This document shows, one piece after another, positions 55,337 through 59,143 of a DNA stretch of 64,000 nt (its first letter is position 1; each line of letters begins with the position of its first letter). The notes under the pieces were generated by a model. That model was not told where the DNA came from. It worked only from the letters and a program-made list of their open reading frames with translations, and did no database searches. This stretch comes from Phycisphaerales bacterium. Lineage in GTDB: Bacteria > Planctomycetota > Phycisphaerae > Phycisphaerales > UBA1924. The stretch lies in the NCBI GenBank assembly GCA_007693765.1, contig RECZ01000097.1:1862-65861 (forward strand). The letters run 5' to 3'. The position numbers and the translations under genes were made by a program.

Positions 55337-58300
55337 TTAGAACCCGCCGAAGGGGCTGCGCGGGAACTTCACGTACGGCAGTCGGATGGAGCGGCCGCTG
55401 GTGTCGACCATCACTTGGTCGGCGGTGACGACGGCGCCGTATTCCTGAAGATTGGTGGCGCCGACGAAGGCGACGAAGTCGTCCTGCTCGATGCCGTCGC
55501 CGGAGACGCCGATGCCGCCGACGAGCACGCCGTTGCGGTAGAGCGGCACGCTGCCGGGGAAGATCTGCAATCCGTTGGCGATAGGCAGCGAGGGATCGGT
55601 CACGCCGCGGGCGCCGAGGAGACCGGCGTTGAAGAGCCGAAGGGCCTCGCCGTCGGAGCCGGCGCTGGCGTACTCGTTGAGGTAGCCGACGAGATTGGTG
55701 ATGAGCAGTTGCGTCTGCAAGCCGGTGTTGAAGACGCTGAAGACCTCGCCGGGAGCGATGCTGAAGGGGCCGGGCGTCGTCCCCGGGATGCCGTCGGGCA
55801 GGAAGGGACGGGCGAGGAAGCCGCCGGCACGGTCACTGATCGCCACCGAGCCGTCGAGCGCGAGGCCGATGGCGTTGGCGCGGTCGGCGAACGAGGCGAA
55901 GGCGCCGCCCTCGGCGTTGCGCAGCAGGTCGCCGGTGTCGAGGCGGCTCATGGTCACCGCCGTGCGGGCCTTCTGCACCGAGACGTCGAACCCGAAGACC
56001 GGAGCGTCGGGCGAACGGAAGACGCCCAGTAGATTGCCCTCGGCGTCCACCACCGACACCGTGACCTGTGAGACCTGCGGCCTGTCCTTGCGGATCTGCG
56101 CCCGCAGCATGGCGTTGAGGTCGTGGGCGCGCCGCAGCGCCTCCTGCACATCGGCCTGCGAGAGGTGCTCGCCCTGATTCAGGCGCCCCGCGCGGGTGAG
56201 GGCCGCGGCGTCGTTGGGCGTGATCTCGGCGACGCCGGCGGGCGCGCCGGGCGAGGCAATGTTCACGCGGGCGACGCGGTCGGTGAGCGGGCTGACGCCG
56301 ACGAGGAAGCGGTCCGGCCCGGCCACGAGGATGCGCCCCTGCGCGAGCGCGCCGATGGGGTCTGCCAGCGCCTCGCCGGGAGCGAGCGTCGCGCCGTTGG
56401 CGGGCGAGAGCATGAACTGCTCGCCCGTCACGCTGTTCTGCAGGACAATCGCATCGTCGGCGGGGTCGCCCGTGCCCTTGTCGTCGTAGGCGATGGCGCC
56501 GAAGCGCTGGTGGGGCGCGCCGACATCGGAGCCCGGCGCTGTGAGGTTGCGCAGCACGGTGAGGGCGGCGGTGTTGGGGTTGATGCGCACGAGTTGCCGC
56601 TGCGGGCCCGATTCACGCACCGCGAAGACGGCGCTCGGACCGACCGTGAACGACTGCACCGCCCCCGCGCCGACACTCGTCAACGCGGCGAACGAGGCGG
56701 GGTTCGTGACGTCCGTCAGATCGACGCGGAAGAGCTGGCCGGTGGTCACGCTCACGCCGATCATCGCGGGCGAGCCGGCGTTGTCGAAGTACGCGGCGTC
56801 GCGCAAGACGGCGTCCGGGTTGGCGACCGTCTCGGCGGGCGTGGAGGCGCCGGTGTTGGCGTTGTAGCGCACCACGCGCCCCTGTTCGCTGACGACGAAG
56901 TGCGCATCGTCGCCAGTGACGCCGGGCGTGCCGGCGTCGTCGTAGACGAGCGAGAGCACGCGCTCGCCGGGGTCCAGCCGGGCGCCGGGGGCGTTCACGC
57001 CGCCGATGGTCGCCAGCACGGTGGCGGCGCCGGTGGAGGCGTTGATGCGCACGAGTTGTGTGGAGAGGTCCGCGCGTTCGCGCACGCCGAACAGGGCGTT
57101 CTCCCCCACCGCGACGGCCGAGTAGCGGCTGGAGGCGAGGTCGCCGATCGTCTCGCCGAGCCGCCCGCCGAGGGCGGTGGTGGTGAAGATGGTGGCGTCG
57201 CTGACGCGCGGCTGTGTGATGACTTCGAGCCGGCCCGCGGCCTCCTGGTTCGCGAAGGGCTCGATGAACGGCGTGAGCCTTCTGATCCTGTCGGGATTGC
57301 CGCGCTGGTACGCGAGGCGAACGCCCTCGACGAAGACGCGGTCGCCGCGGATCTGCCTGGGCGCCTCGAAGCCGATCTGCCCCGCGAGGGCGATGCGCTC
57401 CTCGGCGGTCTGCTTGCCCTTGCGCGTGAGCTCCGCCGTGTACTGCCCGTCAAGTTCGACGCCGATGCCGCCGAGCAGTTGCCCGTCGCGGTAGAGCGGC
57501 ACGCCGCCGGGGTCGGCCGCGAGCCCGAGGGGCAGGCGGTTGATGTCGCTCGTGGGGAGGTTGGAGAACTGCACGCCGAAGAGCGGGCCGGAGGGCTTGT
57601 TGCGGATCTGCGGCGGGAAGTTGGGCTGGATGATGAAGCCCGCGGTGCGGGTGGTGAAGGCGTTGCCGTTGGAGGAGAGGAACGCGGCGGTGCCGGCCTT
57701 CGTGGCCGCGGCCATGGCGCTGGGCACGCTCACGCCCTCGAGCCCGCCGCTGCCGCCGCCGGTGATGGTGGTCGTCGTGGGGGCGGAGGCGAGGGCGCCG
57801 TCGGTCATGCGCACGGCGCCGAGCACCGTGCCCTCGCGGTCCATCAGCACGATGGTGGCGTTGACGCCGAGGCGGCGCGCCTGCGCGACGGCCTGCTCGA
57901 TGATGCGCTCCACATCGGCCTCGATGAGCGCGACGCCGGGGCTGGGCAGCGGGTCGATCACGGCGCTGCCCACGACGCCCACGCCGCTGCGGGGCTTGTC
58001 GGTGAGGTCATAGCCGTCGACGTGGATCGCGCCGAGCGTCGCGGCGTAGATGCCGGGGTTCACGTGCTCGGAGTGCTCGCCGACGATCAGCCCGCCGACG
58101 TGCAGTCGGGCGATCTCGCCGCCGCGGAGGATGTCGCCGTCGCGGAAGCGCAGGTCGGGGCCGGGGGCGCCGCCGGCGCTGATGATGGAGTCCACCACGT
58201 CGGCGCCGACCACCACCTCGCCGATGGTCCCGACGTTGAACGCCGCGCCCTCGAGCGTGAAGCCGGGGCCGAGGATCGTGCCCGCCATGAGCAGCGAGTC

Positions 58301-59143
58301 GTGGATGCCGCCGTCGATGCGCACGCTCTCGATGCGGGCGCCGGCGCTGATGGTCGAGGCGCCGTCGACGTCGGCCCGCGCGTGCACCTCGCCGATGCGC
58401 TCGCCGGCGCGCAGGTGCACGCCAGTCGCCCCGTCGTGCAGGTCGACACGCCCGATCCGCTGCGCGGCGTCGACGATGAGGCCGTTCGCTGCGCCGCCGA
58501 TGCTGACCTCGCCGACGTTCTCGGCCCACACGCGCAGGCCCGAACCGTCGCCATGCACGCGCAACGAGGCGATGTCGCCGAAGACCCGCACGCTGGACGA
58601 GGGCGCCGCCGCGATGAGGTCGATGCGCGCGCCCCCCCCGGCTCCGGCCCCGGCGAAGGCGCGCACGCCGGCGCCCGCTTCGAGCGAATCCGCCGAGAGC
58701 GCGCCGAGTTCGCCGCGCACGTGCACCCCCTCGCCGACGAGGCGGACGCCGTCGAGTCGGAGCGTCCCGACGGCGCCCGCGAAGAGTGAGCCGAGCGTCG
58801 TCCGCCCGTCGCCCTCGCCGGCCTGCTGCACGCTGATGTGCAGCGCTGATTTGTGGTTGGTGTCGCGGAGTTCGATGCGCGAGAGGTCCGCGCCCTCGGA
58901 GGGGTCATCGTTGAAGATCAGGCTGGCGACGCCGGGGCCGAGCAGACGTACGGTGACCTGATCGCCGTCGTCGTCGAGGAATGAGAAGAGACGGGCGTCG
59001 TTCCAGAGGGTGACCGCCGAGAGGAGAATGCGCCGCTCCAGCGGCTCCACGACGGGCGCCCGGGAGCGCGGCAGGGCGCCGCCCCGCCGCGGGCTCGGAG
59101 GCTGGTTCGTCGCACGCGTGGGGTCGGGGACGATCGTCGACAT
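55337..59143 (-). CDS. Giant secreted protein: LERRILLSA-type N-terminus, beta-helix-like degenerate repeats, two GlcG/HbpS-like (DUF336) domains separated by a long beta-rich region
   Basis: Start MSTIVPDPTRATNQ...VVEPLERRILLSAV at 59143. Repeats such as IGEVSIGGAANGLIVDAAQRIGRVDLHDGATGVHLRAGERIGEVHA. DUF336-like domain 1: ADVERIIEQAVAQARRLGVNATIVLMDREGTVLGAVRM...GGVPLYRDGQLLGGIGVELDG. Domain 2: ...VTVSVVDAEGNLLGVFR...QKARTAV...GSVPLYRNGVLVGGIGVSGDGIEQDD. Confidence 0.8.
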   Translation of the reverse strand: MSTIVPDPTRATNQPPSPRRGGALPRSRAPVVEPLERRILLSAVTLWNDARLFSFLDDDGDQVTVRLLGPGVASLIFNDDPSEGADLSRIELRDTNHKSALHISVQQAGEGDGRTTLGSLFAGAVGTLRLDGVRLVGEGVHVRGELGALSADSLEAGAGVRAFAGAGAGGGARIDLIAAAPSSSVRVFGDIASLRVHGDGSGLRVWAENVGEVSIGGAANGLIVDAAQRIGRVDLHDGATGVHLRAGERIGEVHARADVDGASTISAGARIESVRIDGGIHDSLLMAGTILGPGFTLEGAAFNVGTIGEVVVGADVVDSIISAGGAPGPDLRFRDGDILRGGEIARLHVGGLIVGEHSEHVNPGIYAATLGAIHVDGYDLTDKPRSGVGVVGSAVIDPLPSPGVALIEADVERIIEQAVAQARRLGVNATIVLMDREGTVLGAVRMTDGALASAPTTTTITGGGSGGLEGVSVPSAMAAATKAGTAAFLSSNGNAFTTRTAGFIIQPNFPPQIRNKPSGPLFGVQFSNLPTSDINRLPLGLAADPGGVPLYRDGQLLGGIGVELDGQYTAELTRKGKQTAEERIALAGQIGFEAPRQIRGDRVFVEGVRLAYQRGNPDRIRRLTPFIEPFANQEAAGRLEVITQPRVSDATIFTTTALGGRLGETIGDLASSRYSAVAVGENALFGVRERADLSTQLVRINASTGAATVLATIGGVNAPGARLDPGERVLSLVYDDAGTPGVTGDDAHFVVSEQGRVVRYNANTGASTPAETVANPDAVLRDAAYFDNAGSPAMIGVSVTTGQLFRVDLTDVTNPASFAALTSVGAGAVQSFTVGPSAVFAVRESGPQRQLVRINPNTAALTVLRNLTAPGSDVGAPHQRFGAIAYDDKGTGDPADDAIVLQNSVTGEQFMLSPANGATLAPGEALADPIGALAQGRILVAGPDRFLVGVSPLTDRVARVNIASPGAPAGVAEITPNDAAALTRAGRLNQGEHLSQADVQEALRRAHDLNAMLRAQIRKDRPQVSQVTVSVVDAEGNLLGVFRSPDAPVFGFDVSVQKARTAVTMSRLDTGDLLRNAEGGAFASFADRANAIGLALDGSVAISDRAGGFLARPFLPDGIPGTTPGPFSIAPGEVFSVFNTGLQTQLLITNLVGYLNEYASAGSDGEALRLFNAGLLGARGVTDPSLPIANGLQIFPGSVPLYRNGVLVGGIGVSGDGIEQDDFVAFVGATNLQEYGAVVTADQVMVDTSGRSIRLPYVKFPRSPFGGF

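Follow-up and report, generated by a model that had tools for sequence, protein, structure and literature searches.

The porin-cytochrome cluster (PCC) type PCC4 was put forward in 2017 as a candidate for extracellular electron transfer (He, Barco, Emerson & Roden 2017, PMC5566968). According to the text of that paper, the inner-membrane proteins of PCC3 and PCC4 are recognised by about five transmembrane helices, an SGXXG motif and two WX3HX13H motifs, and PCC4 subgroup II, which is reported there from Alpha-, Gamma- and Zetaproteobacteria as well as from Planctomycetes, consists of a porin, multihaem cytochromes that carry 4, 5 and 10 haems, and a pfam13247-type iron-sulfur (Fe-S) gene located upstream of the membrane-protein gene. 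The genomes named there for PCC4 include Hyphomicrobium, Zetaproteobacteria and Oceanospirillum beijerinckii. The model presented in the same text places the decahaem cytochrome in the periplasm and contains no extracellular component. Here, we analyse a gene from a 64,000-nucleotide stretch of the genome of a Phycisphaerales bacterium (contig RECZ01000097.1; this whole stretch is referred to as the window). The gene encodes a protein of 1268 amino acids (aa) with two fused domains of the DUF336 (GlcG/HbpS-like) family, and the tandem-DUF336 family to which it belongs appears to be a core component of PCC4-type clusters that has so far gone unremarked.

Among DUF336 proteins, HbpS uses D/EXXE motifs to bind and oxidise Fe(II) (PMC3754957), and the haem pocket of PduOC is formed by a dimer, with a pocket shape that is conserved in the family (PMC4923194). 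The text and supplements of PMC5566968, its figure aside, do not mention a DUF336, GlcG or haem-binding-protein gene, and we found no description in the literature of a DUF336 protein in such multihaem/LVIVD/PCC4 clusters.

The neighbourhood of the gene in the window fits the published description of PCC4 subgroup II, with slight differences in haem counts. A porin gene adjoins a decahaem gene with 10 CXXCH motifs, the product of the membrane-protein gene carries the WX3HX13H motif twice, together with SGFAG and several hydrophobic segments, and the Fe-S gene lies directly upstream of the latter gene (Table 1). The small cytochromes of the window have 4 (three CXXCH and one CX4CH), 4 and 6 haem motifs, where the description of PCC4 gives 4 and 5.

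Two fused DUF336 domains in one protein

The tandem-DUF336 gene is an open frame along its entire length, which agrees with the large gene that an earlier note on this DNA, made by a model from the letters alone, had described. The motifs quoted in that note are present in the product, with VEPLERR at aa 32, GGVPLYRDG at aa 546 and GSVPLYRNG at aa 1197. Reading of the sequence places an AGGAGG before the ATG start at 59143, and GC content at third codon positions (GC3) is 0.92 in a host genome of about 70% GC, a third-position bias as in a real gene. Full-length homologues are 46-47% identical at 98% coverage. A longer frame starting from GTG 59428 was considered and rejected: it overlaps the divergent barrel gene, and the N-termini of the homologues match the ATG at 59143 instead. 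A consensus scan of positions 55200-59400 revealed no sigma-70-like promoter in the divergent intergenic region (59144-59322), and a terminator scan was likewise uninformative.

From the N-terminus, the protein consists of a LEPR-XLL-like motif, about 355 aa of all-beta, solenoid-like sequence, the first DUF336 domain (D1), a DUF6923 beta-propeller of about 335 aa and the second DUF336 domain (D2); it contains no CXXCH motif. Both DUF336 domains, which the earlier note had proposed, are recognised by the Pfam profile PF03928 (HbpS-like; cut-off 25 bits), with 82.5 bits for the whole protein, 38.8 bits for D1 alone and 61.7 bits for D2 alone, and both match solved DUF336 structures. For D2, these are PduOC (5cx7, E = 2.4e-9), EfgA (6bws, 3.4e-7) and 4nkp (3.1e-5), whereas a profile of 12 D1 sequences matches EfgA (6bws, 6.6e-6), 4nkp, PduOC (5cx7) and HbpS (4bmw/3fpv, 6e-4 to 2e-3). 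The profile searches thus bear out the DUF336 assignment for each of the two segments.

The PF03928 match is broken in two within D1 and again within D2, in both cases by an insert, and these inserts enlarge the domains to about 190 aa (D1) and about 270 aa (D2). An AlphaFold model of aa 400-1268, built on an alignment of 111 sequences, reaches a predicted local distance difference test (pLDDT) score of 95 and a predicted template modelling (pTM) score of 0.94, which implies that D1, the propeller and D2 hold a fixed mutual arrangement in the predicted structure. In this model, D1 is an alpha/beta domain with a conserved loop insert of about 45 residues, characterised by the invariant pattern FPP...GPLFGVQFSxLPxSD...DPGGxPLY. 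D2 contains a helical insert of about 120 residues, the invariant motif GSVPLYxNGxLxGGxGxSGDGxxQDD and a conserved C-terminal hairpin, RLPYVKFPRSP. Being covalently fused and confidently fixed in arrangement, D1 and D2 would probably reproduce the DUF336 dimer intramolecularly; Foldseek matches of the core model are dominated by the propeller and do not inform the D1-D2 packing. When D1 and D2 are compared by BLASTP, their common ground is confined to the shared signature motif, so that any duplication must be ancient. The motifs at aa 546 and aa 1197 are about 650 aa apart, of which about 335 aa are accounted for by the propeller and the remainder by a linker and the N-terminal part of D2.

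Linkage to the barrel and decahaem genes

We looked up five homologue loci, which encode two full-length Phycisphaerales proteins, two shorter ones and an acidobacterial protein of 713 aa; in all five, barrel and decahaem genes adjoin the tandem gene. The barrel of the window is 60-71% identical to the Phycisphaerae barrels located beside homologues and 48% identical to the acidobacterial one, and the decahaem protein shares 61-64% identity with its counterparts in homologous loci; both are therefore more conserved than the tandem protein itself (46-47%). A scan of GTDB species representatives returned at least 368 tandem loci, the best 80 of which were used for neighbourhood counts. A barrel homologue is located within 10 kb in 72 of these 80 loci, nearly all of which have the decahaem gene as well. 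Five of the exceptions with no barrel within 10 kb were tested, and all five carry a barrel elsewhere in the genome, at a distance of 19 kb in one complete chromosome.

Barrel and tandem genes were also scored in 301 genomes of the window's phylum. Both genes are present in 39 genomes and both are absent from 257, while four genomes have the barrel only and one has the tandem only, which makes 43 genomes with a barrel and 40 with a tandem. A hand tally from coordinates places the two genes on the same contig in 35 of the 39 genomes, with most pairs no more than 4 kb apart. The connection to a barrel/multihaem system suggested by the earlier note is strongly supported by these figures (72 of 80 loci; 39 genomes with both genes against one with the tandem only), and synteny and co-occurrence extend across several phyla, the architecture not being widespread apart from cytochrome genes. 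The arrangement of the genes varies: Proteobacteria have the genes for the c554-like cytochrome, the tandem protein, the barrel and the decahaem protein in this order on a single strand, and in Phycisphaerae and Acidobacteria the tandem-DUF336 gene is divergent from the barrel gene. The persistence of the linkage through such changes in order and strand speaks for a functional tie. By sequence comparison, the fused double-DUF336 protein thus appears to be a near-obligate member of the PCC4 module.

Neither a barrel nor a tandem gene is present in any of the 16 sampled genomes of the window's family, order or class, and the genome of the window has no other DUF336 gene. Given this patchy spread, the module was probably acquired horizontally; its tandem protein has the sole LEPR-type N-terminus of the genome, which is consistent with a block arriving from elsewhere.

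Several loci show variations on the common arrangement. In Acidobacteriota, one subgroup of tandem genes (L029, L032, L054 and L055) has no barrel within 10 kb; the genomes of L029 and L032 carry a barrel elsewhere, and the subgroup may represent a paralogous or relocated lineage. The N-terminal domain of L029, L054 and L055 holds VNAASF/Y, a type labelled TIGR03437 by JGI, and the N-terminus of L032 is different. Another acidobacterial locus (L006) has a 167-aa PqqD-family gene (PF05402; L006:9433-9936, plus strand) between the barrel operon and the tandem-DUF336 gene, PF05402 being a domain of the peptide-chaperone/RiPP-recognition type, and encodes an extra 569-aa protein without clear family between barrel and decahaem. 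In two related Phycisphaerales loci (L001:13956-15425 and L003:13845-15278), the tandem gene is followed on the same strand by a conserved gene for a 477-489-aa protein with a signal peptide and no Pfam match. The 489-aa protein has no homologue in the genome of the window, where the c554-like gene converges on the tandem gene at this position instead.

A widespread family with clade-specific additions

An alignment of homologues identifies D1 joined to D2 as the conserved unit. In a library clustered at 50% identity, this tandem family comprises 290 representative clusters (E<=1e-30); with clustering at 90% identity, the number is at least 7,966. Its members occur in Phycisphaerae, Acidobacteriota, Sphingomonadales and Gammaproteobacteria, and cultured hosts include Sphingobium, Sphingomonas, Erythrobacter, Porphyrobacter and Novosphingobium as well as Pseudoteredinibacter, Zhongshania, Spongiibacter, Steroidobacter and Halomonas denitrificans. 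Source annotations name the proteins just "heme-binding protein" or "GlcG (DUF336)", and no tandem-specific NCBIfam model matched the 1268-aa protein. The view that a gene with two DUF336 domains is unusual, as the earlier note had it, therefore does not hold: the tandem belongs to a very large family, and only the N-terminal beta region and the propeller are special to a clade. Judged by its sequence, the 1268-aa protein represents one clade's elaborated version of a very widespread, uncharacterised tandem-DUF336 family.

The propeller insert is confined to a small Phycisphaerales clade, in which about six clusters (50% identity) span the query from end to end, and it is missing from acidobacterial, proteobacterial and several Phycisphaerae homologues. 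The spacing of the D1 and D2 motifs varies with it: forms with the propeller have about 695 aa between the motifs, compared with 387-494 aa for the other Phycisphaerae, 352-364 aa for Acidobacteria and 404-436 aa for Proteobacteria. Likewise, the N-terminal beta region is limited to some of the Phycisphaerae homologues. Acidobacterial forms have a different N-terminal domain of about 220 aa and hydrophobic N-termini that read as signal peptides. The proteobacterial forms are lipoproteins of about 650 aa with the motif L-[AS]-[SG]-C-G followed by a linker rich in Gly, Pro and Thr. Of the 47 homologues from Proteobacteria and other groups (Phycisphaerae and Acidobacteria excluded), about 42 have a lipobox. 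Two tandem-DUF336 frames of the window's phylum (G223:C37:58384-59181 and G242:C645:8306-8530) each contain one in-frame TGA, which could reflect sequencing error, a pseudogene or recoding.

Conserved residues and the candidate ligand site

The alignment of 111 homologues from several phyla contains 53 invariant columns. Conserved residues include Lys482, Lys1058, several Arg and Tyr and many acidic residues; in D2, the latter form a cluster of the D/ExxE type (D1216-G-I-E1219-Q-D1221-D1222). No His, Cys or Trp column reaches 80% conservation. His18, the haem ligand of PduOC, aligns to Asn1010 in a variable column, whereas Arg22 of PduOC, which binds the propionate, aligns to the invariant R1014. 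The role in haem handling envisaged by the earlier note is not supported by this pattern. Classical haem ligation is thus unsupported by the alignment, and any haem binding would involve other residues. Since His and Cys are not conserved and acidic, Arg, Lys and Tyr residues are, we infer a different kind of ligand site and consider that a cation or another small ligand is more likely to be bound there than haem in the classical manner. Redox sensing in the style of HbpS, also raised in the earlier note, finds no counterpart in the loci examined, where a sensor kinase is not a conserved neighbour.

The propeller, the N-terminal region and export

The segment between D1 and D2 scores 32 bits against PF21959 (DUF6923 repeat; cut-off 27) when searched alone and 22.8 bits within the full-length protein. 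Its model shows repeated four-strand blades with pLDDT above 90, and the top Foldseek matches are all beta-propellers (E of about 1e-9). The N-terminal region was modelled as aa 1-439 (overall pLDDT 85), in which aa 43-397 are all-beta with pLDDT of about 85-95 and for the most part above 90. Foldseek returned weak beta-helix and beta-solenoid matches for this model, none of which is significant (best E = 1.1); for this reason, we call the region solenoid-like only, and there is no clear sequence periodicity in aa 44-400. The beta-rich architecture that the earlier note had outlined is hence real with respect to the spacer, about 335 aa of which form the propeller, and to the N-terminal beta region, which is modelled as all-beta, and its likeness to a beta-helix is weak (E above 1).

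Residues 1-39 are predicted with pLDDT below 50. The LEPR-XLL-like motif in this leader scores 13.7 bits at aa 31-43 against NCBIfam NF012209, below the cut-off of 17, and a LEPR-type motif (LExRxLL) is found in six of eight Phycisphaerae homologues. A Tat signal, suggested by the ERR of LERRILL, was rejected because the homologues show LEPR, LEAR or LEER at this position. From this motif and the export signals of its relatives, we predict that the 1268-aa protein is exported. In the Phycisphaerales form, the three added parts (LEPR leader, solenoid-like region and propeller) resemble modules for surface display or substrate contact, and the surface attachment mentioned in the earlier note is possible through these Phycisphaerales-specific parts.

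Neighbouring genes in the window

The features of the tandem-DUF336 gene and its neighbours are compiled in Table 1. As the earlier note had stated, the tandem gene is divergent from the barrel/multihaem pair. The decahaem gene runs past the end of the window; the full protein was read from L008:1128-5318 and has a C-terminal LVIVD propeller (65.5 bits). Its size, lipid anchor and propeller suggest that the decahaem protein may reach the cell surface. A barrel for TonB-type haem or iron uptake was considered and rejected, as the barrel has no Plug or TonB_dep_Rec match and is always followed by the decahaem gene. Homologues of the inner-membrane module recur near the tandem-DUF336 gene in other phyla. 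The Fe-S protein and the membrane protein, encoded by separate genes in the window, are fused as an 843-aa protein in the acidobacterial locus L006 (L006:17779-20310), which supports the two acting as one inner-membrane unit. Just past the redox genes, the window encodes a 710-aa secreted protein with repeated FN3/Ig-like modules (45985-48117, minus strand).

Table 1. Positions of the tandem-DUF336 gene, its parts and its neighbours in the window
Feature	Coordinates	Strand	Basis
Tandem-DUF336 gene, stop codon included	55337..59143	-	Open frame; translation, 1268 aa
LEPR-XLL-like motif, aa 31-43, VVEPLERRILLSA, in disordered leader aa 1-40	59015..59053	-	NCBIfam NF012209
N-terminal all-beta region, aa 43-397, solenoid-like	57953..59017	-	AlphaFold model; no Pfam family
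HbpS-like/DUF336 domain 1 (D1), aa ~405-595	57359..57931	-	PF03928, 38.8 bits; D1 profile matches
DUF6923 beta-propeller between the DUF336 domains, aa ~639-973	56225..57229	-	PF21959; model; Foldseek
HbpS-like/DUF336 domain 2 (D2), aa ~996-1268	55340..56158	-	PF03928, 61.7 bits; PDB matches
Divergent intergenic region, tandem-DUF336 gene/barrel gene	59144..59322	.	Read from sequence
Outer-membrane beta-barrel (porin), 639 aa, signal peptide, C-terminal Phe	59323..61242	+	Faint Alginate_exp Pfam match only
Decahaem lipoprotein, 1396 aa in full, past window end	61266..64000	+	10 CXXCH; lipobox LSAC
c554-like cytochrome, 3 CXXCH + 1 CX4CH, convergent on the 3' end of the tandem gene	54087..55277	+	PF13435, 38.6 bits
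Inner-membrane module: cNMP-binding Fe-S protein, FRD-like membrane protein, tetrahaem and hexahaem cytochromes	49779..53914	-	Pfam matches
cNMP-binding + 4Fe-4S protein, directly upstream of the membrane-protein gene	52274..53914	-	Includes weak Fer4_11 match
FRD-like dihaem-b-type membrane protein	51376..52263	-	W77X3HX13H, SG118FAG, W267X3HX13H; several hydrophobic segments

Proposed role and alternative explanations

We consider it reasonably probable that the tandem protein is exported and serves as a non-cytochrome part of an electron conduit of the PCC4 porin-cytochrome type. Its partners in the conduit would be the outer-membrane barrel, the decahaem-LVIVD lipoprotein of about 1400 aa, the inner-membrane Fe-S/dihaem-b module and the small multihaem cytochromes. 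The functional unit would consist of the fused and expanded D1 and D2, packed as an intramolecular DUF336 dimer, in which the invariant loops, together with acidic, Arg, Lys and Tyr residues, would make a ligand site that holds either a metal cation (Fe(II) or Mn(II), for instance) or a non-covalent redox cofactor. This site would be positioned beside the barrel/decahaem complex at the outer membrane, probably at the cell surface, and the Phycisphaerales additions (leader, beta-solenoid-like stalk and propeller) would probably project the core or contact the substrate. A more specific version, which we regard as tentative and rather doubtful, would make the protein an outward-facing, non-cytochrome terminal module that binds an extracellular substrate and swaps electrons with the decahaem protein; the substrate bound at the invariant acidic/Arg/Tyr site could be Fe(II), Mn(II) or a bound redox cofactor.

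The assignment as a conduit subunit draws on the domains, their conservation, synteny and co-occurrence; export, association with the conduit, the pseudo-dimer and the nature of the ligand are what we infer. Several observations weigh against it. The 1268-aa protein has no hydrophobic signal peptide, and its LEPR-type N-terminus is the only one in its own 2.9-Mb genome. The co-occurrence of barrel and tandem (Fisher p = 2.8e-43, n = 301) is uncorrected for phylogeny, and the four genomes with a barrel and no tandem include two with weak barrel matches and one with the barrel at a contig edge. The lack of conserved His or Cys columns and the Asn found in place of His18 speak against the simplest redox-cofactor version, that with haem. 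PCC4 itself is known from bioinformatics alone, and we found no functional tests of it in the searchable literature. Finally, gene linkage can also reflect an assembly or protective factor rather than a working subunit.

The protective alternative supposes an HbpS-like protectant or sensor that stands outside the electron flow and, in the vicinity of a very haem-rich machine of the envelope, sequesters or degrades free haem or binds and oxidises stray Fe(II), thereby limiting oxidative damage or reporting redox stress. It draws on the homology to HbpS, a secreted haem-binding and haem-degrading protein that also binds and oxidises Fe(II) and gives protection from iron-based oxidative stress (PMC3754957), on the D/ExxE-type acidic cluster kept in D2, and on the linkage of the gene to cytochrome-rich clusters. 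We nevertheless think it unlikely. In the loci examined, the conserved neighbours include neither a sensor kinase nor a response regulator, the haem ligand is unconserved, the genome of the window has no further DUF336 gene, and the fused, expanded architecture is unlike the octameric HbpS. Moreover, the proteobacterial gene is located within the operon, between the cytochrome and barrel genes, and this position together with the near-obligate co-occurrence fits a stoichiometric subunit better.

Tight synteny and co-occurrence would also be expected of a factor for assembly or maturation, that is, a periplasmic or outer-membrane chaperone that helps to fold, lipidate, export or insert the 1400-aa decahaem protein and is not part of the mature complex; the lipoprotein nature of the proteobacterial forms and the absence of redox-type conserved residues from the 111 homologues point in the same direction. 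Such a role appears quite improbable, given that many of the 53 invariant columns are charged and cluster in loops, a pattern that suggests an active site or the binding site of a small ligand more than the surface of a chaperone, and that the leader, solenoid and propeller of the Phycisphaerales form resemble surface-display modules. DUF336 proteins are not known to serve as chaperones of outer-membrane proteins. The least probable explanation by far is an unrelated surface adhesin or enzyme whose adjacency to the cluster is coincidental or due to co-transfer on a mobile island. While the absence of the cluster from the sampled genomes of the same family, order and class suggests acquisition as a block, and an N-terminal solenoid and a propeller are typical of adhesin-like proteins, it is the adhesin-like parts that vary and the DUF336 tandem that is conserved. 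The linkage spans at least four phyla despite changes in order and strand and holds at the genome level where the genes are separated; coincidental adjacency is strongly disfavoured by this cross-phylum linkage and effectively excluded.

A near-obligate DUF336 member adds a missing part to the PCC4 model, and DUF336, a family of disputed function, gains a well-defined genomic context. If the protein is indeed a terminal module, bacterial extracellular electron transfer would gain a terminal component of a new kind, spread over thousands of aerobic heterotrophs (Sphingomonadales, marine Gammaproteobacteria and soil Acidobacteria) that are not considered electroactive. Should the module prove to be an electron conduit, ordinary aerobic heterotrophs may turn out to be capable of extracellular electron transfer far more commonly than assumed. 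The module is present in easily cultured genera, including Sphingobium, Sphingomonas, Erythrobacter, Novosphingobium, Zhongshania and Steroidobacter.

Comparison with known systems

The tandem protein retains the signatures of the PF03928 family and of HbpS from Streptomyces reticuli, K-A-x-T-A and GGxP...G..GxIGVSG....D, and, similar to HbpS, it is predicted to be exported and tied to haem and iron redox biology. HbpS is a stand-alone protein with a precursor of about 190 aa that forms octamers and works with SenS/SenR, in contrast to the two diverged, fused domains of the tandem protein and its barrel and decahaem partners. More generally, members of PF03928 are typically small (about 140-190 aa), stand-alone homo-oligomers, from which the 1268-aa fusion departs in architecture, not in homology. 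PduOC (5cx7) is the best PDB sequence match of D2 (E = 2.4e-9); it is cytoplasmic, fused to an adenosyltransferase and binds haem through His18, whereas the tandem family has no conserved His.

The locus shares with PCC4, as described in the text of the 2017 paper, a porin followed by a decahaem gene, the presence of further, small cytochromes with several haems, and the position of an Fe-S gene ahead of the membrane-protein gene. It differs in the haem counts of the small cytochromes and in the decahaem protein, which that text presents as periplasmic and which in the window is a 1396-aa lipoprotein with an LVIVD propeller. A further parallel, by analogy, is the MtrCAB system of Shewanella. 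MtrC and the tandem-DUF336 protein have no sequence homology, and the latter is devoid of CXXCH motifs; what the two systems have in common is a barrel, a decahaem cytochrome and an outer-membrane lipoprotein partner encoded in one operon. By this analogy, the proteobacterial tandem-DUF336 lipoprotein would fill the slot of the third component.

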